64,000 nt of DNA from NCBI GenBank assembly GCA_016210055.1, contig JACQUZ010000088.1:6446-70445 (forward strand), written 5' to 3'. Position 1 is the stretch's first letter; every line of letters begins with the position of its first letter. The position numbers and the translations under genes were made by a program. Source of the DNA: Deltaproteobacteria bacterium (GTDB lineage Bacteria > Myxococcota_A > Polyangia > Haliangiales > SHYZ01). The notes under the pieces were generated by a model. That model saw only the letters and a program-made list of their open reading frames with translations. It made no database searches and was not told where the DNA came from. Shown piece after piece: positions 4,300 to 20,824 of the stretch.

Positions 4300-5133
4300 T
4301 CACTTGCAGGCGAGCCCTGGCGGTGGCGCTGGAAGCGCTTTCACTTCGGTTGGGGGGGCGACTTGCGCTGCCTCGCTCGCCCGCTCATCCAGCCCAGGAT
4401 GCGTGGCGAGGAAGCTCGCGATTCCTGCGGCATCTCCATGCTTGTCTTTGAGTCGCCGGAAGAACGTGGCCATGCCCCCTGGATGGATCCCTGCCTTGAC
4501 GAGGAGCTCGAGCCCGTGCCGGTCCGCTTCCCGCTCCTGGTCACGATCGTAGGCCAAGCTGGTCAACTCGGCTGAGTAGCTCACCAGGGTATCGAGCTCG
4601 GCCCATCCCAAGACGAGACCCAAGACGACCGATCCTCCGGCCTGCCGGAGGATCCGCGCCGTCCCATGGCGAAGCGTCACGTGGTGGAGCTCGTGGGCGA
4701 GCACCGCCGCGATTTCTTCGCCACTCCCCGCGGCCTTGAGAAGCCCCATGTGCACGGCGACGAAACCGCCAGGGAGCGCGAACGCGTTGATCTCGGGGCG
4801 ATCCACGACGACGAACGTAAACTCGAACTCCCGCACGGGAAGCGCTGCGATGAGGGGCTTGGCGAGCGCCTCCACGTACGCTTTCGCATCCTGGCTTGTG
4901 CAGCGAAGATTGGTCGGGGCGAGGAGGGGAAACGAGGCTTCCCCCAGCTTCCGATCAACGGTGGGCGGGACAAAACGCACCAGCTTTCCAGCGGCTTCCT
5001 TGGCAAGCCAGAGAGCTCCGAGCACGAGGCCAAGGAGGCCACCTAGCAGGATGATGACTTCCATGACGATGCGCTTGCGCGAGTGACCGAATCCTCGTGA
5101 CTCTTCTTGCACGTTCGACTCCGATTGCTTCAT
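4300..5133 (-). CDS. M48 family Zn metallopeptidase
   Basis: INAFALPGG, AVLAHELHH (HExxH), YDRDQEREAD, FLATHP; N-terminal TM. Start moved to ATG 5133 to avoid overlap with the divergent gene. Confidence 0.9.
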   Translation of the reverse strand: MKQSESNVQEESRGFGHSRKRIVMEVIILLGGLLGLVLGALWLAKEAAGKLVRFVPPTVDRKLGEASFPLLAPTNLRCTSQDAKAYVEALAKPLIAALPVREFEFTFVVVDRPEINAFALPGGFVAVHMGLLKAAGSGEEIAAVLAHELHHVTLRHGTARILRQAGGSVVLGLVLGWAELDTLVSYSAELTSLAYDRDQEREADRHGLELLVKAGIHPGGMATFFRRLKDKHGDAAGIASFLATHPGLDERASEAAQVAPPTEVKALPAPPPGLACK

Positions 5134-5163
5134 TGTTTGTGCCACAAGGATGCGGGGTACACC

Positions 5164-5859
5164 ATGAGACATTCGATCGAGCATGGACCGTCGTTCGCCT
5201 GGCTGAGGGTCACCCTCGAGCCAGGGGAGACTGTTTTTGCCGAAGCGGGTTCAATGGTCGCGCGCACGCCCGAGGTGGCGATGACGACACGACTCAACGC
5301 GGGACTCAGGGTAGGCTTTTTTAGCAAGGTGCTGGCGTTCTTTGTTGCGCTCCTGCGCAAGGTTTTCGGCGGCGAGACGATGTTCGTCAATGAGTTCGGA
5401 GGGCCGTCAGGCGGCCAAGTGGTCTTGGCCCCACAGGTCTCTGGGAACGTCGTTCATGAGCAGCTGGAAGCGGGGAAAAAGCTATTCGTCCAGGCTCAGA
5501 GCTACCTGGCCTCGACCGGCGACGTGGAGGCCAAGGTCCGTTGGGGAGGGCTACGGACGCTGTTCGGCGGCGAGGGGCTCTTCCTTCTCGAATGCGCCGG
5601 GTCGGGCGACCTGTTCATCACCGCGTACGGTGGAATCCACCCGATTTCCGTCGACGGAAGCTTCGTGGTGGACTCGGGGCACGTGGTGGCATTCGACGGG
5701 ACCCTCGACTTCCGGGTCCGAAGCGCTGGCGGGCTCAAGTCCTTCTTCTTTTCGGGAGAGGGGCTTGTCTGCGAGTTCAAGGGGCACGGCCGGGTTTTTG
5801 TCCAGTCAAGGAACATCAAAGCGCTGGTCGGCTGGATTTCACCACTCCTTAGGAGCTAG
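5164..5859 (+). CDS. TIGR00266/AIM24 family protein (copy 1)
   Basis: AEAGSMV, GGETMFVN, GGEGLF, AYGGI, VDSGHVVAF, SGEGLV, QSRN. Confidence 0.9.
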   Translation: MRHSIEHGPSFAWLRVTLEPGETVFAEAGSMVARTPEVAMTTRLNAGLRVGFFSKVLAFFVALLRKVFGGETMFVNEFGGPSGGQVVLAPQVSGNVVHEQLEAGKKLFVQAQSYLASTGDVEAKVRWGGLRTLFGGEGLFLLECAGSGDLFITAYGGIHPISVDGSFVVDSGHVVAFDGTLDFRVRSAGGLKSFFFSGEGLVCEFKGHGRVFVQSRNIKALVGWISPLLRS

Positions 5860-5861
5860 GA

Positions 5862-6554
5862 ATGCGCTTTGACATTCACTATCGACCCGCTCATGCACTG
5901 GCGATCGCGAAGCTCGCTGCCGGCGAGCACGTGCGTGCCGAGTCTGGCGCCATGGTCAGCATGAGCTCGAACATCGAGGTACAGACAGATGGCCCCATGG
6001 GACGTGCGGGCGGCGGCCTTTGGAAGAAACTCAAGCGTGCGGTGCTTTCGGGCGAGACCTTCTTCACCAACCATTACTTAGCCCGCGGGGGACCTGGCGA
6101 GGTGACGCTCGCTCCGAGTCTTTGCGGAGACATGGTCGTGCACGAGCTTTCTCGTGGCGAGGACCTTCTCATTCAGGGGTCGAGCTACATGGCCGCGCCC
6201 GACACCGTAGACATCGACACGCAATTCCAGGGGTTCCGAGGCTTGTTCAGCGGGGAAAACCTGTTCTTCTTGCGCGCGACCGGGCAGGGCCCGGTGCTCA
6301 TGAACGCCTTTGGTGCCATAGAAACCGTCGACCTCTCGGGTGAGCTTATCGTCGACACGGGTCACCTGGTGGCGCTCACCTCTGGCCTGCATTATGAGAT
6401 TGGAACGGCCACGAGTGGCTGGATTGCAAGCTTTCTCTCGGGAGAGGGGCTGGTGCTTCGGGTGCGCGGGCAGGGGCGCTTGTACCTGCAGACCCGGAAT
6501 CCGACGGAGTATGGCCGCCACGTCGGCCGCCTCTTGCCGCCAAGGGAGCAATAA
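5862..6554 (+). CDS. TIGR00266/AIM24 family protein (copy 2)
   Basis: AESGAMV, SGETFF.N, VDTGHLVA, SGEGLV, LQTRN. Confidence 0.9.
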   Translation: MRFDIHYRPAHALAIAKLAAGEHVRAESGAMVSMSSNIEVQTDGPMGRAGGGLWKKLKRAVLSGETFFTNHYLARGGPGEVTLAPSLCGDMVVHELSRGEDLLIQGSSYMAAPDTVDIDTQFQGFRGLFSGENLFFLRATGQGPVLMNAFGAIETVDLSGELIVDTGHLVALTSGLHYEIGTATSGWIASFLSGEGLVLRVRGQGRLYLQTRNPTEYGRHVGRLLPPREQ

Positions 6555-7246
6555 TGAAACACCAAGTATTGGACTCGCCCGATTTCGGGCTGCTCAAGAC
6601 TACCTTTGAGGCGCCGGGCGAGCGCCTGGTCTCCGAGGCTGGCGCGATGGTCGCCATGAGCTCGGGACTGAAGATGGACACGAACATGCGAGGGGGGCTT
6701 CTCGCCGCCGCAAAGCGGAAGCTGCTCGGAGGCGAAAGCATGTTCCAGAACACGTATGTCGCGACGGCGGCAGGGCAGGAAGTTTGGCTCGCGCCGGCGC
6801 CCGAAGGGGACATCCGCCACCGGCGGCTAGGCGTGGGCGAAACCCTGTTCTTGCAGAGCGGGGCGTATGTCGCCCACTTTGGCGACAAGCTGCAACTCGA
6901 CACCAAGTGGGGAGGCGTTCGATCGTTTTTCGGTGGGATCGGTTTTTTCCTCCTGCGCGTGGTCGGACCGGGGGATCTCTTCTTCTATAGCTATGGAGCC
7001 ATCCACGAGGTCGACGTGGGAGGGGGCGGCTACGCGTGCGATACGGGCCACGTGGTCGCGTTTACCGACGGACTCGAGTACGAGATACACAAGTTCGGCG
7101 GTTTCAAGGGACTCTTCTTCAGCGGAGAGGGGTTGATCTGCCGGTTCCGCGGAGAAGGGAAGCTGTTCCTTCAGACCCGCAACGCACCTAGCCTGGCTGC
7201 CTTCTTGGAGCCGTTTCGCCCAGTGAAGACGTCGTCGAGCGATTAG
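6554..7246 (+). CDS. TIGR00266/AIM24 family protein (copy 3)
   Basis: SEAGAMV, GGESMFQN, SYGAI, DTGHVVAF, SGEGLI, LQTRN; TAATG coupling. Confidence 0.9.
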   Translation: MKHQVLDSPDFGLLKTTFEAPGERLVSEAGAMVAMSSGLKMDTNMRGGLLAAAKRKLLGGESMFQNTYVATAAGQEVWLAPAPEGDIRHRRLGVGETLFLQSGAYVAHFGDKLQLDTKWGGVRSFFGGIGFFLLRVVGPGDLFFYSYGAIHEVDVGGGGYACDTGHVVAFTDGLEYEIHKFGGFKGLFFSGEGLICRFRGEGKLFLQTRNAPSLAAFLEPFRPVKTSSSD

Positions 7247-8831
7247 ACACGGACCCAAGGAATAGGGTCATCCCGAAAAGCGTGCTGGCACACATGACAA
7301 CGAGTAGGACCACGCCTATTCCCCAGAGGCGTGGGTAATCTCCGATCCACAAGAGGCCCCACCAGTCTAGGCGTGCCCTCGCATAGGGCTCTTCAATATC
7401 CAGCTCAAGCGTCGTGTACCGGCGCCAAGGCGCATCCTTTTCCGCCTCCTTCCAGTCGTGGCCGAAGGGTACGTGACGGAGAAGCCATGCGTGCCCTTCA
7501 ATAGGGGAGAATGCGGGAAGCCATTGGTGCCCGTGCATGTCCTCAAAGCACGAATCGCAGTGGCCGCGGTCCCGCTCGGGAACGGCTGCGCCCGCGCGGT
7601 TGGGTTGTCCGAGCCATTCGGTTCGTGCCTTCATTGCAATGCGGATGTAATGGTCCCAATAAAAAGCATTGCCGAGGGCTTGAACGAGTAGACCGGCGGC
7701 AGCTAGTGCGCCGAGAGCCAACCAAGCCACGCGCCGTGCGTTCCGCTGCTCTGCGAGCGATTCCAACCAGGGCGCGATGGGCACGAGCAGGACCGGAACC
7801 ACCGCGGTGAGGTAGCGAGGTCCATAGCAGTAGTCACCGCTCCAGCTTAGGAATCGAGAGTAGAAGAGGACCACCGGTAGTACGGTCAAGGTGAGACAAG
7901 CCGCTACGAGCGGGCGTTTTCTGATGAGCGTAGGGAGCGCGAAGATCCCGAGAACAAGTGGCGGGCTGTAGAGAAACAAGCTTTTTCCGGGCGAGAACAG
8001 GAGCCCCCACAGCCCAGCCCACGTGCGCTCGTCCATCTGCCTGAGAGTGTCCTCATATCCCGAGCTAAACGGTGAGCCCCAGCGAGCATGGTTGTACAGC
8101 GCAGCCAGGAGGAGGAGTGGGAGGAACGTCACCATGGCGGCCGCCGAAACCCGAAGAAGTGCCTCGCGACGCCGCCACAGCGCGACCATGAGGAAGACGC
8201 CGCCACCTGCGAGAGAGAGCGCATAAATGAGCTTGGCGTGGAGGAGCGCACCTCCCCACGCCCCGAGTGCTAGCGCTCGCCTTCGATCCGGCCCTTCGGT
8301 GACGCGTTGCAGCTCGGCAATGAAGCCGGTAAAGCAGGCAGCTTGAAGGATTTCGGAGAATGGGTAACGGGCGTAGACGAAAATCGCGGTGGAGAATCCC
8401 AAAACGAGGGCAGAGATCATCGCCACTCGAACCGACGCTCCGAGACGGCGGCACATGCCGAAAAAAAGGACACAGGTTAGGCCGCCGAGTAGGGCCGAGG
8501 CGATGTGGCTCGTCAGGATCAAGGTGAATTCCTTGGCGGCCGGAGCGAGGGCGCTCACCCCATTGCGAAGGAGGATCCCCGGAATGCTCACCAGCGACGG
8601 TCCAAGGCTGTACTGCGAGTAGATCTTGCCATCCGCGCCCTTGTGGCTCATGGGCGGCCACTCGGTAGAGATGTCGATGGCCCCACGGGTTACCATGCGC
8701 TCTGCCACCTCATACATGAGGCGGGCGTCACCCCAGGGGCGCTCGCGGCTACCAAAGAGGAAGTACACCGAGACCGTGAGCACGAAGATGGCGAGACCTG
8801 GCTTGCGTGTCGCGCCCATGAGTGGAGTCAT
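7188..8831 (-). CDS. Polytopic membrane protein, GT-C fold glycosyltransferase-like
   Basis: About 12 TM helices; WGDARLMY loop, YSQYSLGPSL, FSEIL, YNHARWGSPFSSGY, GLLFSPGKSLFLYSP, YGPRYL. Confidence 0.75.
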   Translation of the reverse strand: MTPLMGATRKPGLAIFVLTVSVYFLFGSRERPWGDARLMYEVAERMVTRGAIDISTEWPPMSHKGADGKIYSQYSLGPSLVSIPGILLRNGVSALAPAAKEFTLILTSHIASALLGGLTCVLFFGMCRRLGASVRVAMISALVLGFSTAIFVYARYPFSEILQAACFTGFIAELQRVTEGPDRRRALALGAWGGALLHAKLIYALSLAGGGVFLMVALWRRREALLRVSAAAMVTFLPLLLLAALYNHARWGSPFSSGYEDTLRQMDERTWAGLWGLLFSPGKSLFLYSPPLVLGIFALPTLIRKRPLVAACLTLTVLPVVLFYSRFLSWSGDYCYGPRYLTAVVPVLLVPIAPWLESLAEQRNARRVAWLALGALAAAGLLVQALGNAFYWDHYIRIAMKARTEWLGQPNRAGAAVPERDRGHCDSCFEDMHGHQWLPAFSPIEGHAWLLRHVPFGHDWKEAEKDAPWRRYTTLELDIEEPYARARLDWWGLLWIGDYPRLWGIGVVLLVVMCASTLFGMTLFLGSVSNRSTTSSLGETAPRRQPG

Positions 8832-8883
8832 CGGGGGAAGATTGCCCGTGGAGGGCGCTCGAGCGCAACAGATCGACTACGTT

Positions 8884-9482
8884 CTACCGGAAATGGCACG
8901 TGGGCCGAATGACCTGCATGCACGTGTCGGCCCCTGCAACTGTGTTGGTCGTGACACGCACGGTTCCGGCCGGGGAGCCAAGGCACAGGGGGCTTTCGTA
9001 GGTGCATCGCTCCGCGGCCCGCATGCAGTCGGGATCCATGTCGCATGCCCAGCCCGTTCCGCCTTGTCCAGAATTGCAAATGCCACACTGATCGGTCGTG
9101 CCCACGCGGTCCACGACCATCCTGTCGTAATACGGCTCCATGGGCTCGCGACAGTCGAGGGAAACAGTGCGCGAGCATTCCCCGTCGCTGCGCAGGCCGC
9201 TTGACGGAAGAAGGGACAGGGAATAGCTCGCCGCGCATTGGAATTGCTCCGGCTCGCACGCGGGCGTCCAAGTGGCCGCGTAGCGGATTCGTCGCTTCTT
9301 GAGCTCCAAAGCGGTGCCAACGGCTAGGTTCGTGTCTCAGCTTCGAGGCCAAGTGGTGACTGGATGGGCTGCGGGAAGTCTGGAGCACCACAGGCATCTG
9401 ACCAGTAGTTCCTCGCGTGGGCGGCGGCCGCCACTCCCATTAGTCCTATGGACGCCGCTACACTAATCAATCGTCGAATCAT
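8884..9482 (-). pseudogene. Probable frameshifted gene for a secreted Cys-rich protein
   Basis: AAAGGAGG RBS plus ATG 9482 gives signal peptide MIRRLISVAASIGLMGVAAAAHA, then TAG at 9324-9326. The Cys-rich frame ending at 8884 opens just after 9337, so one missing base near 9327-9336 would join them. Confidence 0.55.
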
Positions 9483-9529
9483 TGCCAGTACCTCCTTTAA
9501 TTGCTCGGGCGCAAGTCGATAAGGGCGCG

Positions 9530-10148
9530 CTAGGGGTGAGACGCAACCTTTGGAGCTTCGCTCACGCGTTGAATGGCGAGGATGTCCTCGTCGCCAGGAC
9601 GGAGAACGGCGCGGAGGTGCCTGCGTGCCGCAGCTTCGTCCGGGGACTTCGCAAGGTACGCCAATGCAGCCTGGGAACGGATGGCGTAGCTTGGGTGCGC
9701 CTTGGCGATCTCGAGCAGCATGTCGAGTGCTCCCGTGCTGCTCATGCCTGCGAGCCCCTCGATCCCCCGAATCGCGGCAAGCCTGGTGGTGTCCTCCATG
9801 ACGAGAGGCGAGTTCTCGTCATGGGAGTTCCCTCGCTCGATTGTCACGGGGGCGGGATCGTCCCAGATCGCGGATCGGAATAGGCTCAGCGCTGTTGGGT
9901 GCTCGAGCTCTGATGCCACGTGCAGGACGACCCAGCGGGCCTTAAAGAAATGGGGGGGGAGCTCGGCAAGGTCCTCTTCGAGGATCTTGACCGCGTCTTC
10001 GGCGACTTGCCTAAGTGCATGTAGGGTGGCTTGGTATCGTTCGCCTTTCCGGGCTTCGCGCCGTTGGTAAGAGGAAAAGAAGGCAAGTCCCCGATCCAAG
10101 GGCAATGATGGCCACGAGAGTCCAGCGGGCAAGTCGCGCTCTATCCAT
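9530..10148 (-). pseudogene. Probable frameshifted gene for a membrane-anchored HEAT-repeat-like protein
   Basis: GGAGG RBS plus ATG 10148 gives MDRARLARWTLVAIIALGSGTCLLFLL..., stopping at 10011-10013. The helical HEAT-like body (RYQATLHALRQ...TRLAAIRGIEGL...IRSQAALAY) is in a different frame ending at 9530. Confidence 0.55.
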
Positions 10149-10176
10149 GAAAGTCCTCCCCAATGGAGGTACCTAT

Positions 10177-10192
10177 TACGAAAGGCGTGCCA
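10177..10192 (-). promoter_or_regulatory. sigma54-like -24/-12 element upstream of ATG 10148
   Basis: TGGCACG-CCTT-TCGTA: perfect -24 half, imperfect -12. Confidence 0.35.
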
Positions 10193-10416
10193 CCAAGGCC
10201 GCGATCGGATAACCGCGCCTTTTTGACGGGATAGGTCTCGGGAGGAAGGGCAGGTGTGGCTTATGGGGCAACGGATTGGGGCTGCAATGTGGACTCCCAG
10301 GCCACGCCACAGGTACCGAATGATGGGCACCTGCTTCTGGTCTCGCGGGGTCCAATTGGCAATTGTGCGCAGTAGGTATTGCGCGCGTTGATCAAGGTGA
10401 GGGTGTTCTGGATATT

Positions 10417-10447
10417 GTTGACCAAAGAGCCAATTCAACCATAAAAT
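10417..10447 (+). promoter_or_regulatory. sigma70-type promoter of the methyltransferase-kinase operon, overlapped by an inverted repeat
   Basis: TTGACC-N18-TAAAAT; GTTGA-N13-TCAAC palindrome across the -35 and spacer. Confidence 0.55.
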
Positions 10448-10532
10448 GCCGGCCGGCTTAGTTCTGGACAAGACTGCGTGCGGTGTCCGTGCCCTGGGAG
10501 ACATGAGGGCATGATCAGAAACGGGACGGACG

Positions 10533-11996
10533 ATGACGTTACCTGCCGAGCAACGAAATCGTTTTGATCGCAGGCTCCGGGAGAGGCGTCTCCGCGTGGT
10601 TGACCTTAGAGTGGGACCCATCTGCGCCCACGCAAGCCACGCTGCCTTGGGCACCGTGGTAGCGTCGGTCGAGGATCTATCCCTACATGGACTTGCGCTC
10701 GTTATCGATGGCCAGGCTGGCGGATCCGAGCTGGTCCATGCAGGCGATCGACTGGATAGGCTGACGTTGTCCAGCGCTGACGGGCTCGTCTACGAGGGAG
10801 CCGCGGTCGTGCGGCACGTCGGCGAGCGGACCGGCGCCCTGATAGCGGGACTCGAGCTCGAAGGCCCGGGGATTGACCTGGCTGCATTGCACCGTCGTGG
10901 TGCCCGGTCGAGCTTCTCAGAAAGGTGGGAAGAAACCCACCACGCGGCCCAGCACGCCCGGGTACGTCCTGACTTCAAGCGTTGGGTCGCGGAGCTTCGC
11001 ACGTACCTGGAGGTCACAAGAGATTTCCTGTGTGCCGAGGAGAATTCCATCCGGGCCGAGGATAGCCTGACACGCGACGAAGCGCTCGCTGAGTACCTCC
11101 ACGCGGCAGCCCCCGCCTTTGTTGCGAGGATGAACCACGCCAGTGAGTCGCTCGCACGGCTTGTGGGCGGTTTTGGTGAGGATGAGCATGCCGAGCATCG
11201 GGCGTATTGCCGTGCCCACTTGGCCCCTCTCCTAGCGAGCTCTCCATTCATGCGCCGCGCCTATGAGAAGCCGCTTGGCTATGCCGGCGACTTCGAAATG
11301 ATGAACATGCTTTACCGGGAGCATGCCGAGGGGGAAGGCATGTTCGGCAAGCTTCTCAACCTGTACGCCACTCAAGAGATCGCCGCCCGCGCGAACATCA
11401 ATCGGATTTCGTACTTGGTCGAAAAGATACGTGCGGCGATTCGGGCCACGAGGGGGCGGCGCCTGCGTGTCGCGAGCATCGGCTGCGGACCGGCGCGCGA
11501 AATCATGTCCTTGCTGGAGGAGCAGCCAGTTCTTGGTGGGGCGCTCGATGTCATGCTCCTCGATCAGGAGGAACGGACAATTGCCCACTGCGAGCGCACG
11601 TTGGTCCCTCTGGCAAAACGCACGGGTGCCCGCATTCAGTTGATTCGCGAGTCGATCCGACGGCTCCTCACCGGCCATCGACTGTCGAGCGCGCTGGGCG
11701 AGCAAGACCTCATCTACAGCGCGGGGTTATTTGATTATCTCAATGAAAGAAGCTTCCGGAGCTTGCTCTCTTCCCTGCATGGCGCCCTAGTCAAGGGTGG
11801 GCTCCTCGTCGTCGGCAACGTGGCGGCGCACAACCCCTCGCGCCACGCCATGGAGTATTTCAGCGATTGGTTCCTGATCCACCGATCAGAAGCCGAGCTC
11901 AGGGAAATGACGAGCCACTTGTTGCCGACACCCGCGGGCTACCGCGTCGAGGCCGAGCCGCTCGGGGTCAATCTCTTCCTCGTCGTCCACAGGTAA
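10533..11996 (+). CDS. PhcB-like class I SAM-dependent methyltransferase with N-terminal PilZ-like domain (putative signal synthase)
   Basis: RLRER and DLSLHG (RxxxR, DxSxxG); RAYEKPLGYAGDFEMMNMLY; SAM motif I VASIGCGPARE; DLIYSAGLFDYL; LVVGN; DWFLIHRS. Confidence 0.75.
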   Translation: MTLPAEQRNRFDRRLRERRLRVVDLRVGPICAHASHAALGTVVASVEDLSLHGLALVIDGQAGGSELVHAGDRLDRLTLSSADGLVYEGAAVVRHVGERTGALIAGLELEGPGIDLAALHRRGARSSFSERWEETHHAAQHARVRPDFKRWVAELRTYLEVTRDFLCAEENSIRAEDSLTRDEALAEYLHAAAPAFVARMNHASESLARLVGGFGEDEHAEHRAYCRAHLAPLLASSPFMRRAYEKPLGYAGDFEMMNMLYREHAEGEGMFGKLLNLYATQEIAARANINRISYLVEKIRAAIRATRGRRLRVASIGCGPAREIMSLLEEQPVLGGALDVMLLDQEERTIAHCERTLVPLAKRTGARIQLIRESIRRLLTGHRLSSALGEQDLIYSAGLFDYLNERSFRSLLSSLHGALVKGGLLVVGNVAAHNPSRHAMEYFSDWFLIHRSEAELREMTSHLLPTPAGYRVEAEPLGVNLFLVVHR

Positions 11997-12002
11997 CTTG
12001 CG

Positions 12003-14552
12003 ATGAGCGCTGGTGAATCGTTCGAAGCCAGCATCTCGCAGCGCAACGTGCGCGGGGCGAGGCTCGGCTGCATGCTGGTGGCGATCCTCATGCCGGTGGG
12101 GACCCTGCTCGATCTTGTCACGCAGCGTGACAAGCTTGGGGAGTTCCTGCTGCTTCGGCTTTGTGCTTCGGCTTTTGCGCTTGTCGTGCTCCTTACGACC
12201 CGCGCTCCCTGGGCGCGGAAGCACGCTTTTCTCCTGGGCGCTGCGCCGGCAATATTCTGCGCGGCTATCATCGAAGTCATGGTGGAGGCCCTCGGCGGTT
12301 ACTCGTCGCCGTACTACGCCGGCCTCAACCTGTGCATCCTCGGCGTGGGGTTGGTATTCACCTGGCGCCTCTACCAGGCGGCGCTCGTGTGCGTCCTCAT
12401 TATTGCGATGTGGCTTATCCCGCCACTCATGGGCGGGAAGCCCATCGACTTGGGGCCTTTTTTTAATAACCTCTATTTCCTCATCCTCACCTCGGTGATT
12501 GCGGTGGCGTCCAACGAGAGCCGTTACACCGCCGCACGGCGAGAGCACGATGCGCGCATGCAGCTCGCCCACACGACGGGAGAGCTTTGTGCGGCCCTCG
12601 ACCGCCTTCAGGAGCTGGACCGCGTAAAGAGCCAGTTCTTCGCGAGCATCTCCCATGAGCTCAGGACGCCTTTGACGCTCATCTTGGCTCCCGTCGAGGA
12701 GCTCATCGCGCGCACCGAGACTGGGGCAGTGCGGGACACGCTCCTCATGATACGGCGCAACGCCGAGAGGCTGCTGCGGCTGATTGACGATCTCCTCGAT
12801 CTTGCCCGCCTCGAGGCGGGGGGCCTCCGCCTGCAAGTCGGGCCCGTGGATCTGCGGGCGCTGGCCGCTCAAGTCGTGGAGGCGTGCAGGCCGACCGCAG
12901 AGGCCAAGCGAATCGAGCTCGGATTTCATGTCGAGCCAGGGGTGGAGGGAATTCACGGCGATCCACACCGCCTGGAGATGGTCCTCACGAACTTGATCGG
13001 AAACGCGCTGAAGTTCACGCCGCAAGGAGGGCGCATCCGAGTGACCGTGTGCCCGACAAGAGGTGGAGCGAGCGTGCTCGTGTCGGACAACGGTCCAGGA
13101 ATTGCCGAGGCCGACCTCCCGTTCATCTTCGATAGGTTCTACCAGGCGGATGGCGGCGGCGATCGCGCGCAGGGAGGCGTCGGCATCGGGTTGGCGCTGG
13201 CCAAGGAGCTCACGGAGCTGCACGAAGGCACCCTCTCGGTCGAAAGCGAGCTAGGCGTTGCTACGACCTTCACCCTCTGGCTTCCCAAGGGGCGCGATCA
13301 CTTCCGCCCCGAAGTGATCGAGCGCCGGCGAGGCGTCGTCGAAGGGCACCTCGGATGGCGATCGAGCGACTCCAAGCCTCACGCTCGAGGGGAGCCGACA
13401 CCCCTTAGAGTCTCCACCGAGACGCTCGAGCTGCCCGACGATGGGCCACTCCTCCTCGACGGCTCTCGCCGTCCGCGGATAGTCGTCGCCGAGGACCAGG
13501 ACGACCTGCGTGCGTTTGTTCGCGACGTGTTGTCGGAGGAGTTCGACGTGCTGTGCGCCGCTGACGGTGAGGAGGCGCTTGTCCTCGTCAAGCGGGAAGT
13601 TCCCGACCTAGTTCTCTCGGACGTCATGATGCCCGGCAAGACGGGCACCGAGCTCTGTCGTGAAATCAAGAACGACGAGGCGCTCAAGAACACGCCCGTC
13701 ATTCTCCTCACCGCTCGGGTGGGCTCCGACGCGGCGCTCGAGGGGTATGCGATTGGCGCCGACGACTACGTGATCAAGCCATTCCATGCGCGCGTGCTGG
13801 TGGCACGGATCAGGGCTCAGCTCCGCTTGCGGGCCCTCGGGCTCAAGCTCGCCGCTAGGGAGAAGCTGGCCGCCGTCGGGACCTTGGCCGCGGGAGTCGC
13901 CCATGAGGTGCGCAATCCGGTAAACGCCATCATCAACGCAGCGCAGGTGCTCCGAGACCAGGCACTCTCAACGCCAGCGACCAAGCGCCTGCTCGAGGTC
14001 ATCATGGACGCGGGCGAGCGAATCTCGTCCATCACGTCGGCCCTCACGGAACACGCACGCCCCGCCGAAGCAGGAAAGACGTCAATATGTGATGTCCGCG
14101 CGGGACTCGACGCGACCTTGCGCCTCTTGGAGTTTCGCATGTCGGGGGTGGAGGTCGAGAAACGGTATGAGTCAGATCGCATGGTCGTCGCGCCTCCAGG
14201 TGAGCTCAACCAGGTGTTCCTGAACCTCCTGGACAACGCGCTGCGCGCCAACGCCAGGCATATCCGAGTCCAGGTGGCCGACCAAGCCGATCGAGTCGTC
14301 GTGCGCATAGGCGACGATGGGCCTGGAGTGCCGCAAGGGGTCGTAGAGCGAATCTTCGATCCCTTCTTCACCACCCGAGCACCAGGGGAGGGTACTGGGC
14401 TCGGTCTGTTCCTGTCACAACGAATCGTGAAGAAACATGGCGGCGACCTCCGACTCGAGCGGTCCAAGGGGACGGGCGCAGTGTTCGCCGTTGAATTGCC
14501 AGCCGAGGTGGGAACATGGCTTCGATCCTGTACGTCGACGACGACACATTGA
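12003..14552 (+). CDS. Membrane hybrid histidine kinase (TM sensor-HisKA-HATPase-REC-HisKA-HATPase), PhcS-like sensor
   Basis: About 6 TM helices including GGYSSPYYAGLNL; SHELRTP, NLIGNALKF, GVGIGL; receiver EDQDD/LSDVMMP/KPF; second AHEVRNP, NLLDNA, GTGLGL. Confidence 0.92.
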   Translation: MSAGESFEASISQRNVRGARLGCMLVAILMPVGTLLDLVTQRDKLGEFLLLRLCASAFALVVLLTTRAPWARKHAFLLGAAPAIFCAAIIEVMVEALGGYSSPYYAGLNLCILGVGLVFTWRLYQAALVCVLIIAMWLIPPLMGGKPIDLGPFFNNLYFLILTSVIAVASNESRYTAARREHDARMQLAHTTGELCAALDRLQELDRVKSQFFASISHELRTPLTLILAPVEELIARTETGAVRDTLLMIRRNAERLLRLIDDLLDLARLEAGGLRLQVGPVDLRALAAQVVEACRPTAEAKRIELGFHVEPGVEGIHGDPHRLEMVLTNLIGNALKFTPQGGRIRVTVCPTRGGASVLVSDNGPGIAEADLPFIFDRFYQADGGGDRAQGGVGIGLALAKELTELHEGTLSVESELGVATTFTLWLPKGRDHFRPEVIERRRGVVEGHLGWRSSDSKPHARGEPTPLRVSTETLELPDDGPLLLDGSRRPRIVVAEDQDDLRAFVRDVLSEEFDVLCAADGEEALVLVKREVPDLVLSDVMMPGKTGTELCREIKNDEALKNTPVILLTARVGSDAALEGYAIGADDYVIKPFHARVLVARIRAQLRLRALGLKLAAREKLAAVGTLAAGVAHEVRNPVNAIINAAQVLRDQALSTPATKRLLEVIMDAGERISSITSALTEHARPAEAGKTSICDVRAGLDATLRLLEFRMSGVEVEKRYESDRMVVAPPGELNQVFLNLLDNALRANARHIRVQVADQADRVVVRIGDDGPGVPQGVVERIFDPFFTTRAPGEGTGLGLFLSQRIVKKHGGDLRLERSKGTGAVFAVELPAEVGTWLRSCTSTTTH

Positions 14553-15649
14553 ACCTGACGGTGTTTGAAGCCGCCTGCGCCGGGGACTTCTCGATCCTCA
14601 CGGCCACCAACGCCGACGTGGCCCTGGGGATGATGCGGAGGCACGAAGTGGGCGTCCTGCTCACGGATCAGCGCATGCCTGGGATGTCTGGGATCGAGCT
14701 GGCAGAGCTGGTCAAGAACGAGTTTCCGGATACGATCCGAATGCTCGTCACGGCATACTCGGATCTCAACGCCACGGTCGATGCCATAAACCGGGGACAG
14801 GTCCTTAGGTACCTCCGCAAGCCCTGGGATCCGAGAGAGCTCAAGAACTCGCTCCACGAAGCGCTCGGCGTTTATGAGATGAACCGTCGGATTCGGGAGC
14901 TCGAGCGTCGGCTCGTGGAGACCGAGCGCGTCTATGCCCTCGGCATCGTCGCGGCCGGCATCGCCCACGAAATCCGCAATCCGATGAACTGGATCGTGAA
15001 CAACCTGGCCATGGCCCAGGACAACTTGCGCGAAATAGGCGAGCTCATCCCAGCCGAGGATCCACGCGGCCAGGCTGTGTACGCACGCCTTCGCGACCTC
15101 GAGGAGGAGGTCTCGGACGCATTGCAAGGGGCGGCACGGATCACTGACATCGCCAAGGGGATCGAGTTGTCGACCCGAACCCGACAGGAAGATGACGCCG
15201 TCGACCTCGCCGAGGTCTTGAGCCTCACGTTGAAGAGCGTTCTCGGTGAGCTGCGGCAAAGATCACAGCTCCGCCTCGACACGCGGCCGGTACCCAAGAT
15301 TCGCGGGTCCCGAACCAAGCTCGGACAGGTCATCTTGAACTTGGTCGTCAACGCCATCCAGGCGCTACCCAGGCGTCCCCAGGCTGAGAACCTGATTGGT
15401 ATCAAGCTGGCTCCCGAAGGATCGCGGGTGCGCCTCGAGGTGGAGGACAACGGGACTGGCATCTCGGTCGAGCACCTGGATCGAATTTTTGATCCCTTTT
15501 TCACCACCAAGGCCGACAGCGGTACCGGGTTGGGATTAGCGATTTCCAAGAAGATCGTGGAGGAGATGGGCGGAGAGATCCAAGTCCAGAGCGAGCCTGG
15601 CCGTGGGACGCGATTCCAGATCACGTGGCCCGCGCTGGCGTCCTCTTGA
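14516..15649 (+). CDS. Receiver-histidine kinase hybrid (REC-HisKA-HATPase), PhcR-like architecture
   Basis: YVDDD, LTDQRMPGMSG, KPWD; AHEIRNP, NLVVNAIQA, DPFFTTK, GTGLGL; overlaps the upstream kinase by 37 nt. Confidence 0.92.
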   Translation: MASILYVDDDTLNLTVFEAACAGDFSILTATNADVALGMMRRHEVGVLLTDQRMPGMSGIELAELVKNEFPDTIRMLVTAYSDLNATVDAINRGQVLRYLRKPWDPRELKNSLHEALGVYEMNRRIRELERRLVETERVYALGIVAAGIAHEIRNPMNWIVNNLAMAQDNLREIGELIPAEDPRGQAVYARLRDLEEEVSDALQGAARITDIAKGIELSTRTRQEDDAVDLAEVLSLTLKSVLGELRQRSQLRLDTRPVPKIRGSRTKLGQVILNLVVNAIQALPRRPQAENLIGIKLAPEGSRVRLEVEDNGTGISVEHLDRIFDPFFTTKADSGTGLGLAISKKIVEEMGGEIQVQSEPGRGTRFQITWPALASS

Positions 15650-15695
15650 TCAATTCGCCGGATGGTCCCGGCGCACCGCATGCTAGAGTGCCGCC

Positions 15696-16814
15696 GTGTC
15701 GCCCGCCGATGAGCTTGCTCTCTTGCTCCGCCCCGCTGGTGGCGGGCTCTACCTGGTGTCTACTGGCCGCGCGGAGCAAGTGGCGCTTCAGCGCCGCCTG
15801 TACGGCGCACGCGACGAGGCCGAGGTGCAGGACAGGTTCCTCCGCGCTCTTTCGCAAGTGGCCTCGGCGCGCGCGGTGATCCTCGGAATCCCCTCGGACG
15901 TGGGCGCCGGCTACCAACGCGGCGCGAACCTTGGGCCGCAGGCAATCCGCGCCCGCCTGCTCGACGACGAGCCAGGGTTCTTCTCGCGCCTCGCCTCCGA
16001 AGGCGTGGTGGACATCGGCGACGTTTTTGTCGTGCCTCAGCTCCTCCACGACGACATGCTGAGCGAGGAGCAGAAACGGGCGACGCGACGCGCCTTGTAT
16101 CCCGTGCTGGCGGCCCATGAGGCAAAAGGCTTCCCCGTGTCTCCCCTGTCCATTGCAGAACGGGCGCTCGACCTGGTGTTCCAGCTCAACCCGAGCGTGG
16201 CGCCCCTGATCATCGGAGGGGACCACTCGACGGCGTGGCCCGTGGTCGCGGCCATGGCTCGCGTGCGTCGTGAGACCTGGGGGATCGTTCAGATCGACGC
16301 GCACACGGATCTCCTGCCTGAGCGGCTCGGGGTCCGCTATTGCTTTGCGACGTGGTCGTACCATGCCAATGAGCTCCTCGGGCGAAGAGGGCGGCTCGTG
16401 CAGGTTGGGACGCGTGCCTCGCGGCACGACCGAAGCCATTGGGAGAACGAGCTAGGCGTGCGCCAGTTCTGGGCACGGGAGTGCAACCGAGACCCGTCGG
16501 GCACGCTGGATGCCATCCTCGAGCACCTGCATGGCGTTGGGGTGAAAGGGGTCTACTTCTCGAACGACATCGATGGCACCGACGAAGCGCATGCGGACGC
16601 GACAGGTACCCCAGAGCCAGGTGGCTTGTCTCCTTCGCTCGTCACGGAGCTCATTCGTAGACTTGGTCGAGAGATAGGTCTCATTGGCGGCGATCTCATG
16701 GAGGTAGCCCCCGCCCTTCGCCCTAGGCCAGACAGCTCCTCCCGCACCCTCGCGGTGGCCGGGACCTACTTCCGGGAGACCCTGGCGGCACTTCTCGGAA
16801 CCCCAAAACCATAG
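15696..16814 (+). CDS. Arginase/agmatinase (ureohydrolase) family protein
   Basis: GANLGPQAIR, GGDHS, DAHTD, SNDIDGTD, ATGTPEPGGL, DLMEVAP. Confidence 0.9.
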   Translation: MSPADELALLLRPAGGGLYLVSTGRAEQVALQRRLYGARDEAEVQDRFLRALSQVASARAVILGIPSDVGAGYQRGANLGPQAIRARLLDDEPGFFSRLASEGVVDIGDVFVVPQLLHDDMLSEEQKRATRRALYPVLAAHEAKGFPVSPLSIAERALDLVFQLNPSVAPLIIGGDHSTAWPVVAAMARVRRETWGIVQIDAHTDLLPERLGVRYCFATWSYHANELLGRRGRLVQVGTRASRHDRSHWENELGVRQFWARECNRDPSGTLDAILEHLHGVGVKGVYFSNDIDGTDEAHADATGTPEPGGLSPSLVTELIRRLGREIGLIGGDLMEVAPALRPRPDSSSRTLAVAGTYFRETLAALLGTPKP

Positions 16815-16837
16815 CTTGACTTGATGAAGGAGCACCC

Positions 16838-17365
16838 ATGACGGCCCCTGTTGGCGCTGACATCGAAGCCCTCTGCCACAAGTGCGGCGATTCCTGGCAT
16901 GTCGTTGTGGCCAAGGTCGGCGACCGCATCGCCAAGGTCCAATGCAAGCAGTGCGGTGGCCAGCACCGGTTCCGCTCTGTCGGTCCCCCGGTGGAAAAGA
17001 CCGCGCGCCCCCCGAAGACCGCGCGCCCTCCGGTGGAAAAGACCGCGCGCACTGTGAGGGCACGACCGGCTGGTGAAGGGCAGCGCCCTTCAAGAGAACG
17101 CCCGACGCCCGCAGCTCCCCAGCCATCCGTCGCGGCGAATGTCTCCCGGCCAATACGGCCCTACCGGCCTGCCGAGAGCTATGAGGTTGGAGATAGGATT
17201 TCACACCCGTCTTTTGGTGCGGGCGTCGTCGAAGCCTTTCCCGGTCCCGGGAAGATGCAGGTCTGGTTCGCGTCGGGACGCAAGATCTTGGCGCTTACCA
17301 AGGCGCCTTCCACGCTCCTTCCACCGCCGCCACGGACCGGCGAGGAGGAAGGAGAGCAGGGATAA
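16838..17365 (+). CDS. Zn-ribbon protein with C-terminal Tudor-like (UvrD/PcrA-CTD-like) domain
   Basis: AAGGAG RBS; CHKC...CKQC; Pro/Arg-rich linker; YEVGDRISHPSFGAGVV. Confidence 0.7.
   Translation: MTAPVGADIEALCHKCGDSWHVVVAKVGDRIAKVQCKQCGGQHRFRSVGPPVEKTARPPKTARPPVEKTARTVRARPAGEGQRPSRERPTPAAPQPSVAANVSRPIRPYRPAESYEVGDRISHPSFGAGVVEAFPGPGKMQVWFASGRKILALTKAPSTLLPPPPRTGEEEGEQG
16988..17050 (+). repeat. In-frame tandem repeat encoding PVEKTAR-PPKTAR-PPVEKTAR
   Basis: ccggtggaaaagaccgcgcgc at 16988 and 17030, flanking a partial copy aagaccgcgcgc. Confidence 0.85.
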
Positions 17366-17376
17366 GGAAACACCAG

Positions 17377-18651
17377 CTACTCTGCTTTCGTCCCCCCACG
17401 GTATTGCTCCCGCAGGAGATCCTGCCTGTTTCCCATGGGCTGCGGTGCTCCTCCGATCCATGCCTTTTCGGCACGGGTGGAGAGCTCGAATGGATCACCT
17501 GACCAGAGCACCAGGTCTGCCGCCGCCCCTTCCTTCAAGACGCCGCGCCCCTTGAGCCCGAAAAGCGCAGCGGGAACCGACGTCACTGCGGCCAGCGCAT
17601 CGTCCCACGACAGGCCCTGGGCTACCGCGTTCCCTGCCGCCTGGCGTAGGGTCCGGACCATCATCGCCTCTTCCATGGTCGATAGGGCGACCGCGACCCC
17701 AGCTTGGACCAAGATCGCCGCCGCGTCGTCGCGCACGTGCACGCGGTCGAACGAGCTCGGGAGGTTTTCCATGGGGTTCAAGATCACCGGCACCTTGGCC
17801 CGGGCAAGATGAGTCGCAACCATCCAGGCTTCGGTCCCTCCAGCAATGATGACGCGCACGTTCAATTCGGTAGCGAGCTTCACCGCGGCCATGATGTCAG
17901 CGGCCCGGTCCACGCGCACGACCAGCGGTAGCTTTCCCTGGACGACCTGAGCAAGCGCTTCAAGGTCGAGACGACTGGCAGCGAGCCTTCGCATTTGATT
18001 CCGTTCGAAGGCATCCCGCCTTCGCGAGTACTGTGCGGCGTCGTCCAGGAGCTCACGGAGCCGCTCCAGGGCCTTACCGCGCGAACCCGATGCGCTGGCA
18101 AGTGCTTCTTCCCCAAGAGCCACGTGCATGGCAACCGGGTCCAAAACGGTGACTTCCTTTAGCGTTCGATCGTGGCCAAGCGTGACCCACGCTGACATCC
18201 CAGATACCAGTCCTCCGCGGGGGACCGTGATCACTTGGGTGACACCTCCCGCCCGGGCCACGGGTATCGCTATCGACGCGGGGTTGTAACCGTCCGTGAC
18301 TCGGTACGCGGCATGCACTGCGCTTTCGCCGCCCGGAAATGCCCCTTCGTTGGTGGACTTGACGAGCCCCACTTCGACGAGCCCAAGCACGGTGAACGAG
18401 TCTACGAGCCCGGCTGTGACCACCTTCCCCGTTCCATCGATTCGTCGGGTGCCCGCTGGGACCTGGACGCTGTTCCCCACGGCGGCGATTACGCCGTCCT
18501 TGATGAGGACGGTGGCACGCTCGAGTTTTTTTCCTCGCTCCACGTGCACGGTGGCGTTTTCTATGGCGACTGCCTCCGTCGCAGCGTGAGCTGCGTGAAC
18601 CGCTCCGGACATGGCGAGTGCAAGGATAATGAGCGACTGGAATGGCTTCAT
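17377..18651 (-). CDS. Secreted amidohydrolase-family protein, probably non-catalytic partner
   Basis: Signal peptide from MKPFQ; IDGTGKVVTAGLVDSFT (HxH absent); GAAADLVLWSGDPFE; ATGA overlap. Confidence 0.85.
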   Translation of the reverse strand: MKPFQSLIILALAMSGAVHAAHAATEAVAIENATVHVERGKKLERATVLIKDGVIAAVGNSVQVPAGTRRIDGTGKVVTAGLVDSFTVLGLVEVGLVKSTNEGAFPGGESAVHAAYRVTDGYNPASIAIPVARAGGVTQVITVPRGGLVSGMSAWVTLGHDRTLKEVTVLDPVAMHVALGEEALASASGSRGKALERLRELLDDAAQYSRRRDAFERNQMRRLAASRLDLEALAQVVQGKLPLVVRVDRAADIMAAVKLATELNVRVIIAGGTEAWMVATHLARAKVPVILNPMENLPSSFDRVHVRDDAAAILVQAGVAVALSTMEEAMMVRTLRQAAGNAVAQGLSWDDALAAVTSVPAALFGLKGRGVLKEGAAADLVLWSGDPFELSTRAEKAWIGGAPQPMGNRQDLLREQYRGGTKAE

Positions 18652-20183
18652 GGGGCAGCTCCTTCTCGCGCTGAGTTGCCGATCTCGAAGTCCGTGGGAC
18701 GGCGCCCCACCCGGCGGTCGAATACCTTGCGTCCGCGCACAAGGACAAGATCCGGGCGTGAGTAGACGGAAAACGGATGGCCGCTCCAAAGGACGACGTC
18801 AGCGCGCTTGCCCACCTCGAGCGTACCCGTGACCTTCTCGATCCCAAGGACCCACGCGGGGTTCGCGGTAATCCAGCGGAGCGCCTCGTCTTCACTGATC
18901 GGAATCCCAGCCGCACGCCCTGCATTCATTGCCTTTGCAGCTTCCTGGTTCAGGCGCTGAATACCCAGCGACGAATCAGAATGAATAACCGCGCGGCCTC
19001 CGGCTTGGGAGAAGAGCGCGGCGTTCTCGGGGATTCCATCGAGCGCCTCCATCTTGAAGCCCCACCAGTCGGCCCAGGTCGAGACCGCGATCCCGTGGCT
19101 CACCAGCACGTCCCGGATCTTGTACGCGTCGAGGGCGTGGTGAAACGAGCGGATGCCAAACCCGAGCTCATCCGCTAGGGCCACGAGCTGGAGCATGTCA
19201 CTCGCGCGATAGCAGTGGAGCTGCACGAGGGTATTCCCCTCGAGGACATCCGCAAGTACCTCGAGCCGCTCGTCACGCGGCGGCGGGCTAGGCGCAGGTA
19301 CTGGCTTTACACGATCGGGCTTTCCCGCGGCCTTGGCCTGGTCGTCCAGCTCTGCGGCTCGCGCCCGTTTCCTTTCCCACAGGGCCCGTTCACGCTTGTA
19401 CGTCGAGAGCTTTGCTCGATGCTCGGCCGCTTCGAAAAAGATCGCGCGCAACGTGGCAAGTTCGCCCATCCGTGTCTTTGGCCCCCCTTTTTCCCCATGA
19501 AGGCGCTTCGGGTTCTCTCCGCAGGCCATCTTGAGGGTAGGGGGTGCATCTGGAAAGCGAACGTCTCCCGCCCCACGTCCCAGGCGCATTTCCACGGTGA
19601 GGCCAAGCCCGCCGATGAGGTTCGCCGATCCCGGAAGGATTTGGGCCACCGTCACTCCGCCCGCGCTCGCACGGGTAATCGCCGGATCTTGGGGCCAGTA
19701 CGCGGACACCACGGAGGCGCTGGGCGTCACGACCTCGGACATCTCATTCCCATCGCTGTTCGCGTCTACCCACGGGGCGGGGTACACGCCAACATGCGAA
19801 TGGGTATCGATGATCCCGGGCGTGACGAATTTCCCCTGGGCATTGATTTCCTCGGCACCGGGTGGGGCAGGGGTAGAGTTGTCGCCCACGGCTGCAATCA
19901 CATCGCTCTTGAGCACGATGGTGCCGTCCTCGATCCGGCGACCAGTCGCGGTGAGGATTGTCGCGTGGCGAAGAACCAACGCGGGGTGGGCGGGTTCTTG
20001 CGTGGCCAACTGGGGGGAAGGGCGTGGCTTGGGGAACGCTGGCTCGGGGTCATGCCAGTCCTCTTCCTTGATATCTAGCTCGATGCTCTCGTTCTTGTCC
20101 GGCGTGGTCGGTGCTGGCGGAGCTTTTTGGCAGCTCACGAGCCCACCCGCGAGCAGAAGGGGGAGAACGCCCGGTGTGCGCAT
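18648..20183 (-). CDS. Amidohydrolase-family lipoprotein
   Basis: Lipobox LVSC; TPGIIDTHSH, LKMACGENPK, HCY, FHH, IHSD, GKRADVVLW. Confidence 0.9.
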   Translation of the reverse strand: MRTPGVLPLLLAGGLVSCQKAPPAPTTPDKNESIELDIKEEDWHDPEPAFPKPRPSPQLATQEPAHPALVLRHATILTATGRRIEDGTIVLKSDVIAAVGDNSTPAPPGAEEINAQGKFVTPGIIDTHSHVGVYPAPWVDANSDGNEMSEVVTPSASVVSAYWPQDPAITRASAGGVTVAQILPGSANLIGGLGLTVEMRLGRGAGDVRFPDAPPTLKMACGENPKRLHGEKGGPKTRMGELATLRAIFFEAAEHRAKLSTYKRERALWERKRARAAELDDQAKAAGKPDRVKPVPAPSPPPRDERLEVLADVLEGNTLVQLHCYRASDMLQLVALADELGFGIRSFHHALDAYKIRDVLVSHGIAVSTWADWWGFKMEALDGIPENAALFSQAGGRAVIHSDSSLGIQRLNQEAAKAMNAGRAAGIPISEDEALRWITANPAWVLGIEKVTGTLEVGKRADVVLWSGHPFSVYSRPDLVLVRGRKVFDRRVGRRPTDFEIGNSAREGAAP

Positions 20184-20759: not shown

Positions 20760-20824
20760 ACCAACCCCATACCTTCTCCTGGATTAGGTAGACCTGCCTC
20801 CATAGGTTGGCGATACTAGGGCGG

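Follow-up and report, generated by a model that had tools for sequence, protein, structure and literature searches.

A predicted variant of the Phc signalling module in an uncultured myxobacterium, with a PilZ-type domain on its methyltransferase

Three adjacent genes of an uncultured myxobacterium are predicted to make up a variant of the Phc type of signalling module, in which parts of the PhcB, PhcS and PhcR kinds come with the gain of a PilZ-type domain and with a longer kinase relay. They lie on the forward strand of a 64,000-nucleotide (nt) stretch of DNA, hereafter the window (Deltaproteobacteria bacterium, assembly GCA_016210055.1, contig JACQUZ010000088.1, positions 6,446 to 70,445). 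In the Phc quorum-sensing system, the methyltransferase PhcB gives rise to the signals 3-hydroxypalmitic acid methyl ester (3-OH PAME) or 3-hydroxymyristic acid methyl ester (3-OH MAME), PhcS is a sensor kinase, PhcR a receiver-kinase and PhcQ a response regulator, and the output runs via the LysR regulator PhcA. On balance, the three window genes probably form an operon for a Phc-type signal synthase and its receptor, for which we infer the signal chemistry, the binding of cyclic di-GMP (c-di-GMP) and the output.

Each of the three open reading frames (ORFs) begins with ATG: 10533-11996 (487 amino acids, aa), 12003-14552 (849 aa) and 14516-15649 (377 aa). Their products are labelled P0001, P0002 and P0003, which we take to be the methyltransferase, the hybrid kinase and the kinase carrying a receiver (REC) domain, respectively. 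A gap of 6 nt (11997-12002) separates the first two genes and the last two overlap by 37 nt (14516-14552). An earlier note made on this DNA had described three tightly coupled genes with this spacing, which the ORF list reproduces, and the motifs that it quoted (KPLGYAGDF, GCGPARE, YSAGLFDYL, DWFLIHR and GGYSSPYYAGLNL) are all present in the translations. The kinship with phcBSR that it proposed stands in part: alignment shows the homology to phcB, to phcR and to the part of phcS that encodes the sensor domain, and reciprocal genome checks agree, but the locus is not a plain phcBSR copy, having a PilZ domain, a kinase-receiver-kinase (HK-REC-HK) protein and no adjacent PhcQ gene, and its enzyme belonging to a sister clade. 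Full-length similarity to PhcB and similarity to the PhcS membrane domain were both checked and found, and none of the contrary outcomes that the note had foreseen at the sequence level was encountered.

By homology, the first gene encodes an S-adenosylmethionine (SAM)-dependent methyltransferase of the PhcB family that falls outside the Burkholderiales PhcB clade. The PhcB-, PhcS- and PhcR-like genes used as comparators came from Ralstonia species other than R. solanacearum and from Cupriavidus and Paraburkholderia. In BLASTP, the enzyme aligns with the PhcB-like protein of Paraburkholderia graminis over aa 67-482 (30% identity, E = 8e-45), with that of Ralstonia chuxiongensis (L074) over aa 127-482 (30%, E = 2e-45) and with that of L049 over aa 222-482 (34%, E = 8e-42). 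L049, titled Ralstonia pickettii RAL3, was treated as Cupriavidus-like, as it is placed in the same genus as Cupriavidus necator EM36 and has 98% PhcB-like identity with it; R. chuxiongensis was added as the Ralstonia comparator because of this grouping. The motifs KPLGYAGD, GCGPA-EI, AGLFDYL and W-LI-R are common to the enzyme and the PhcB-like proteins. When P0001 was searched in two Burkholderiaceae genomes, the phcB-like gene was the one match in each, and the phcB-like product searched against the window's genome returned P0001 as its one match. This genome has a single member of the enzyme family.

An AlphaFold2 (AF2) model of the full-length enzyme, built from a 65-sequence alignment with a predicted local distance difference test (pLDDT) score of 93.6, displays a beta-barrel (aa 31-110), a helical bundle (aa 116-234) and a Rossmann domain. 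The bundle (10878..11234, + strand) consists of helices 116-143, 146-172, 178-211 and 216-234 in the model and is common to PhcB-like proteins, the alignment to the R. chuxiongensis protein beginning at aa 127. The class I SAM-dependent catalytic domain (aa 238-487; 11244..11996, + strand) is assigned to the PhcB family on its 34% identity to a Burkholderiaceae PhcB-like protein over aa 222-482. Residues K246, P247, G252, D253, R291, G319, E323, D344, G423, N429 and W446 are invariant in the family. For the enzyme, Pfam gives class I methyltransferase matches that are all sub-threshold, no NCBIfam family matches P0001, a sequence search of solved structures with the family profile returns weak CheR and phosphoethanolamine methyltransferase matches only, and Foldseek with the whole model finds generic small-molecule methyltransferases only (best 3ocj, E = 2.8e-11), which gives no substrate.

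A word-indexed search yielded 493 homologues of the enzyme, the best being 59-60% identical and coming from Myxococcota assemblies; many of the close ones carry the KEGG PhcB name in JGI, where labelling is automated. With an exhaustive search, 4,446 cluster representatives were found at E <=0.001 and 707 at E <=1e-30, so that the family is large. Other fusions occur among its members, such as a full-length enzyme with an N-terminal polyketide synthase (PKS) dehydratase domain (P0142, 985 aa), one with an additional strong PilZ domain (P0170, 796 aa, 82.7 bits) and one with cNMP-binding and Crp-type helix-turn-helix (HTH) domains in front (P0134, 623 aa), the last of which may be a merged gene call.

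Regarding the Burkholderiales loci, the P. graminis cluster was reached via tblastn of plasmids and has the order methyltransferase, kinase, receiver, receiver. Its enzyme served as bait in a genome collection, and the best 80 of 329 relatives were kept (Paraburkholderia, Cupriavidus, Ralstonia and Oxalobacteraceae). These loci encode, in one direction, proteins of 463-470, 442-453, 368-377 and 333-335 aa, which fits the order phcBSRQ given in the available text of a published account (PMC7694676). The enzyme has its closest non-orthologous relatives elsewhere: PKS-fused domains (P0156 and P0162) are 44-45% identical to its aa 197-486, closer than Burkholderiales PhcB, and stand in proteins with the domain order KS-AT-DH-cMT-ER-KR-ACP-MT, where the methyltransferase (MT) comes directly after the acyl carrier protein (ACP) of a fully reducing PKS. 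In a quick, midpoint-rooted maximum-likelihood tree of 61 catalytic domains, from which no direction of change is claimed, the clade of the enzyme (Shimodaira-Hasegawa-like approximate likelihood ratio test, SH-aLRT, 96) also holds eight of its orthologues from the phylum, along with three domains fused to PKSs and two unnamed representatives. A different clade (support 96) contains Burkholderiales PhcB, while a second, more distant subfamily of the window's phylum and the short Pseudomonadota forms are each separate. L151, for which no catalytic domain was obtained, and the PKS-fused P0196 are absent from the tree.

The N-terminus of the enzyme (aa 1-115; 10533..10877, + strand) is predicted from structural modelling to have a PilZ fold, a putative domain of the c-di-GMP receptor type. 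Modelled alone, this domain has a pLDDT of 85, and its top Foldseek matches are the PilZ domains of BcsA, YcgR, PP4397, PlzA, MotI, VCA0042, MrkH and Alg44 (E = 8e-7 to 1e-4); among the matches as listed, ranks 1-30 are all PilZ domains (E = 8.4e-7 to 5.6e-4). PilZ-domain c-di-GMP receptors have an RxxxR arm and a [D/N]xSxxG motif. In P0001, an arginine-rich arm (R13-R19) comprises R13, R14, R16, R18 and R19, including R14-L-R-E-R18, and is followed by D48-L-S-L-H-G53, which is of the DxSxxG form (DLSLHG, aa 48-53). R16, R19, S50 and G53 are invariant in nine orthologues and R18 is present in six of them. In full-length close homologues, [DN]xSxxG is found in 117 of 118 and RxxxR followed by [DN]xSxxG in 91 of 118. 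The Pfam PilZ model scores 25.7 bits (cut-off 22.5) on the orthologue P0086, and it detects nine of 12 distant homologues of the phylum at E <0.01, four of them above the cut-off. The N-domain profile, searched by sequence against solved structures, gave nothing significant.

Burkholderiales PhcB-like proteins have a later start, no arginine arm and NLQRKS at the position of DxSxxG, and the Pfam PilZ model was not found in them. With regard to the second messenger itself, the window's genome has 18 GGDEF matches, indicating that c-di-GMP is in use there. One 310-aa open frame of the window at ~38016-38924 on the + strand (G000:C66:44461-45369) has a receiver match followed by a GGDEF match; it is probably a REC-GGDEF diguanylate cyclase, and lies ~22 kb from the PilZ-bearing enzyme.

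The second gene had been described as that of a sensor kinase with about six transmembrane (TM) helices. Hydropathy bears out the ~6 TM, but Pfam shows the protein to be a hybrid kinase, in which a receiver stands between two kinase cores (HisKA-HATPase-REC-HisKA-HATPase). Five hydropathy peaks occur in the first ~170 residues of P0002, one of them wide enough for two helices, hence the estimate of ~6 TM; none occurs past residue 260. The sensor domain (aa 1-190; 12003..12572, + strand), almost wholly membrane-embedded and with short loops, is followed by a first kinase core (12573..13307, + strand) with HisKA H218 and the HATPase motif DNGPGI, by the internal receiver (13479..13814, + strand; Pfam Response_reg aa 493-604, 86 bits) with D540, and by a second kinase core (13833..14552, + strand) with H634 in AHEVRNP, 36% identical to a PhcS-like core over aa 615-833 (E = 2e-34). 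The phospho-acceptors H218, D540 and H634 of P0002 and D51 and H151 of P0003 are intact, as are the ATP-lid motifs.

Alignment shows the membrane domain of P0002 to be a homologue of the PhcS sensor domain. Its first 190 residues align with the N-terminus of PhcS-like proteins, GGYSSPYYAGLNL standing opposite EGVQSPYYVGLNL, and BLASTP of P0002 against the R. chuxiongensis PhcS-like protein gives 29% identity (E = 4e-13). When 18 of these domains, all of the window's phylum, were combined into a profile, it matched the N-termini of 11 PhcS-like proteins in hhalign (probability 99.35%, E = 5.3e-21, 172 columns). As a control, the same 18-sequence profile was run as a hidden Markov model (HMM) on 11,170 ORF pieces (1.25 Mb) drawn from the window, the 80 Burkholderiales loci with 7-kb flanks and eight unrelated loci of the same genome. 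Even at E 10, nothing was matched but P0002 and, at 79 of the 80 loci, the ORF that immediately follows the PhcB-like gene; the eightieth locus ends at the enzyme gene. The PhcS-type sensor domain has one occurrence in the window's genome. A distant relationship of this domain to Pfam MASE8 (PF20968) is possible, P0002 scoring 19.3 bits (E = 0.0013), below the cut-off of 26.2.

The third gene (14516..15649, + strand), for which a receiver-kinase had been announced and REC-HisKA-HATPase is indeed recognized by Pfam, encodes a receiver-controlled histidine kinase of the PhcR/LvrB type, with D51 in the receiver and H151 in HisKA. P0003 aligns over aa 3-372 with residues 10-366 of a PhcR-like protein (27%, E = 2e-35), and end to end with a second one (28%, E = 1e-35). 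Searched against two Burkholderiaceae genomes, P0003 gives 37 and 32 kinase matches, respectively; in each genome the phcR-like gene ranks first and alone matches over the full length. P0003 and the PhcR-like protein have the same domains, with no DNA-binding domain, and the same length of 377 aa. Among solved structures, P0003 matches LvrB (8vc9, E = 2.3e-24).

The three genes travel together across the phylum, and the linkage of methyltransferase and kinase that the earlier note expected in Myxococcota is borne out. Of the 401 genomes sampled from the phylum, 85 have a member of the enzyme family at E <=1e-20; in nine of these 85 (the window's included) the identity is 45-100%, and in the rest 27-39%. 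Twenty loci were fetched, comprising all eight close ones and 12 of 76 distant ones, the latter chosen by eye among the better-scoring matches. The hybrid kinase gene comes directly after the enzyme gene in 19 of these 20. The sensor domain is detected in 18 loci, that of L130 being below threshold, and the order HK, REC, HK is likewise seen in 18. At 17 loci there is also a separate REC-kinase gene next to the module; it mostly lies downstream at the close loci and upstream at the distant ones. Six window genes that flank the operon were sought in the 20 loci, and none of them recurs. An orthologue, P0086, is carried by a cultured relative, Vulgatibacter incomptus.

In a sample of Pseudomonadota, 22 of 401 genomes have a family member, six of them full-length and 16 restricted to the catalytic domain, and an ORF matching the sensor-domain profile is found within 1.5 kb in 16 of the 22 loci. 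The short Pseudomonadota forms (L150-L161) are ~300-350 aa long, consist of the catalytic domain only and make up their own clade. At the ten loci L152-L161, the ORF within 1.5 kb gives weak sensor-profile matches (17.5-25.3 bits) and is on the opposite strand where checked. Another association was observed in four of the eight orthologous loci, where a gene of ~190 aa with an HTH_17/MerR-type domain and a receiver lies directly upstream of the enzyme gene (L112:2366-2947, L113:2133-2948, L114:2384-2962 and L116:2403-2960). This HTH_17-REC regulator is a candidate for the output of the module in those four genomes.

Several observations weigh against reading the locus as a c-di-GMP-responsive counterpart of phcBSR. 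The identity of the enzyme to PhcB is just 30-34%, and the enzyme is not sister to Burkholderiales PhcB in the tree, sharing instead a separate clade with PKS-fused domains, which means that its substrate may differ from the 3-OH C14/C16 acids. The Pfam PilZ model (PF07238) scores 18.7 bits on P0001, below its cut-off of 22.5, and the conserved arginines are spaced R-x-R-x-x-R, whereas the textbook RxxxR needs R14 and R18, of which R18 is conserved in only six of nine orthologues. Comparison by hhalign of the N-domain profile with the N-terminus of Burkholderiales PhcB was not significant (4.4%), hence no claim is made that PhcB keeps the PilZ barrel. At L115, the enzyme gene has no kinase in the 4.9 kb downstream. 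No further receiver-domain match that could represent a PhcQ-type fourth gene was found at 7000-20000 of the window. No gene of the HTH-REC kind is present in the window, nor did that query find a close counterpart in the window's genome. Finally, the claim that the operon stands behind one promoter is weak. The only sigma-70-like match in 7.5 kb (TTGACC-18-TAAAAT; 10418..10447, + strand) falls within the 383 nt that precede the first gene, where the earlier note put the start, but shuffled sequence has 1.2 such sites on average, so that a single one does not exceed chance.

Taken as a signal synthase with its receptor, the module could work as follows. The enzyme would methyl-esterify a fatty-acid-like carboxylate and so yield a hydrophobic signal; the position of the methyltransferase after the ACP of fully reducing PKSs in its 44-45% identical relatives is a hint of such carboxyl-ester chemistry. 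The 6-TM domain of the adjacent kinase would sense this product, upon which the first kinase core would phosphorylate the internal receiver and thereby switch on the second core. The latter would phosphorylate the receiver of the third protein, and from the kinase of that protein the phosphoryl group would go on to a response regulator from another locus. The logic of this relay is drawn by analogy from the Leptospira proteins LvrA and LvrB: in the portions available of the published work, LvrA phosphorylates LvrB (PMC5863495, PMC13269768), phosphorylation of the LvrB receiver releases the catalytic domains, and PhcR is named as belonging to the same class (PMC13269768). The PilZ domain, for its part, would make signal production depend on c-di-GMP, an input without parallel in Burkholderiales PhcB.

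A broader proposal can be advanced only tentatively, and we would sooner doubt than assert it. It holds that PilZ-bearing PhcB-like enzymes and PhcS-type sensors constitute a widespread, undescribed, c-di-GMP-gated family of lipid methyl-ester signalling systems, that the Phc system of Ralstonia and Cupriavidus is a pared-down form from which the c-di-GMP motifs and the inner HK-REC block were lost, and that Myxococcota, in which one in five of the sampled genomes has the module, use the product as a diffusible cell-to-cell signal.

A cell-autonomous alternative dispenses with quorum sensing. The module could be a private transducer in which c-di-GMP turns on the methyltransferase, the hydrophobic product stays in the cell's own membrane and the 6-TM kinase reads it there, giving a phosphorelay output without any counting of cells. 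With the PilZ domain, the pathway does begin from an intracellular input, a sensor so deeply membrane-embedded and with such short loops would suit a membrane-dissolved ligand, and the sequence bears no sign of export or diffusion. However, the products of the homologous synthase/sensor pair of Ralstonia act extracellularly and are sensed by PhcS, as stated in the accessible part of one article (PMC7694676), and short-chain hydroxy fatty acid methyl esters are described as diffusible or volatile in that of another (10.1101/2025.10.01.679752). A purely private function is judged unlikely, if still worth keeping in view.

As for the substrate, the enzyme might act on a protein or another non-lipid, for instance as a CheR-like adaptation enzyme methylating the adjacent kinase, its likeness to PhcB being one of shared fold only. 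The CheR matches that suggest this, to Pfam PF01739 (22.6 bits, cut-off 27) and, with the family profile, to the CheR structure 5ftw in the PDB (E = 1.4e-5), are sub-threshold scores that concern the SAM-binding core only. The PhcB-like match, by contrast, covers the helical bundle and the whole catalytic domain (E = 8e-42 to 2e-45), the fold neighbours are small-molecule and natural-product methyltransferases, and close relatives are placed after the ACP of reducing PKSs, all of which makes a protein methyltransferase improbable. Least credible, given the conservation data, is a chance proximity of the three genes, or a link through regulation only, with no synthase-receptor tie: two-component genes are very numerous here (58 receiver-domain matches to one query), but a sensor of this family follows the enzyme at 18 of the 20 loci from the phylum and at 79 of 80 from Burkholderiales and lies within 1.5 kb at 16 of 22 from Pseudomonadota, both the enzyme and the sensor domain are single-copy in the genome, and the flanking genes are not conserved.

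Around the operon, the next gene downstream encodes an arginase-family protein (15696-16814, + strand) and starts 47 nt after 15649; no terminator-like site was seen 3' of 15649, and an arginase-family gene is beside the module in none of 20 related loci. Upstream, a minus-strand ORF (9530-10654) has a C-terminal part with HEAT repeats (27.9 bits). An ATG at 10148, in another frame than this ORF, has GGAGG before it and a stretch resembling a signal peptide after it; either the frame is shifted here, perhaps through faulty assembly, or there may be two distinct genes. Farther away on the + strand, three tandem, paralogue-like ORFs of ~230-250 aa each are found at 5107-7246, the middle one (5862-6554) encoding a full-length AIM24-family protein (206.8 bits). 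At 20807-24757 (+ strand), a 1316-aa protein has a Ser/Thr protein kinase domain, next an AAA_16 ATPase domain and then a C-terminal region of some length.

The literature available to the search presents Phc signalling as a feature of Cupriavidus and of the Ralstonia solanacearum complex. No literature linking PhcB with myxobacteria or Myxococcota was found in a search outside of which most subscription journals lay, the terms co-occurring there unconnected, and a PilZ domain in PhcB is not mentioned in the listed titles or abstract openings of literature naming both, with the same coverage of journals. The three core parts of Phc can now be aligned in a phylum other than that of Ralstonia and Cupriavidus, from an uncultured myxobacterium, and the enzyme family is commoner in the sample of that phylum than in that of Pseudomonadota (85 against 22 of 401 genomes). 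Two mechanistic changes are suggested, namely a domain of the c-di-GMP-receptor type on the synthase and a three-tier kinase relay after the sensor. Together, these offer a candidate diffusible lipid signal in myxobacteria and a candidate direct tie from c-di-GMP to the making of an intercellular signal, both of which are testable; with the orthologue P0086 of the cultured V. incomptus, bench work can proceed independently of the uncultured source.

Among known systems, the C-terminal methyltransferases of highly reducing type I PKSs (P0156, P0162) share 44-45% identity and a tree clade with the window enzyme, but they lack a PilZ domain and are joined to the ACP end of a KS-AT-DH-cMT-ER-KR-ACP megasynthase. 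With PilZ receptors such as YcgR, BcsA, Alg44, PlzA and MrkH, the enzyme has in common the beta-barrel fold, the arginine-rich N-terminal arm and DxSxxG, whereas the window copy is fused to a PhcB-type methyltransferase, remains below the Pfam cut-off and has an arginine spacing that is not uniformly RxxxR.

As in LvrA/LvrB of pathogenic Leptospira, an HK-REC-HK and a REC-HK protein are encoded in one operon, and aa 191-833 of P0002 align to positions 184-817 of the 819 of the NCBIfam LvrA model, although the scores against the LvrA and LvrB models (NF047465 and NF047466) are far below their cut-offs (298 bits against 1200 and 97 against 500). P0002 has ~6 TM helices, unlike LvrA, which is reported in the consulted sections of its description to be cytoplasmic and devoid of transmembrane regions (PMC5863495), and the word methyltransferase is absent from the main text of both Lvr papers (PMC5863495, PMC13269768).

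The nearest likeness in overall composition is to Phc itself, whose synthase, in the passages available of a recent preprint, methylates free 3-OH fatty acids to give the Phc signals (10.1101/2025.10.01.679752, citing Ujita 2019). The order of synthase, membrane sensor kinase and receiver-kinase is the same, homology to PhcB extends over the helical bundle and the catalytic domain of the enzyme (30-34% identity), the 6-TM sensor domain is homologous to that of PhcS, with the SPYYxGLNL motif in both, and the second kinase core of P0002 is the one most like the PhcS core. In contrast, the window enzyme, which belongs to a clade sister to Burkholderiales PhcB, has the PilZ fold together with the arginine arm and DxSxxG; the Burkholderiales protein lacks the arm and reads NLQRKS at the motif. 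While the PhcS-like proteins are ~442-453 aa long with one HisKA-HATPase only, P0002, at 849 aa, has an extra HisKA-HATPase-REC block inserted between the sensor and the PhcS-like core.

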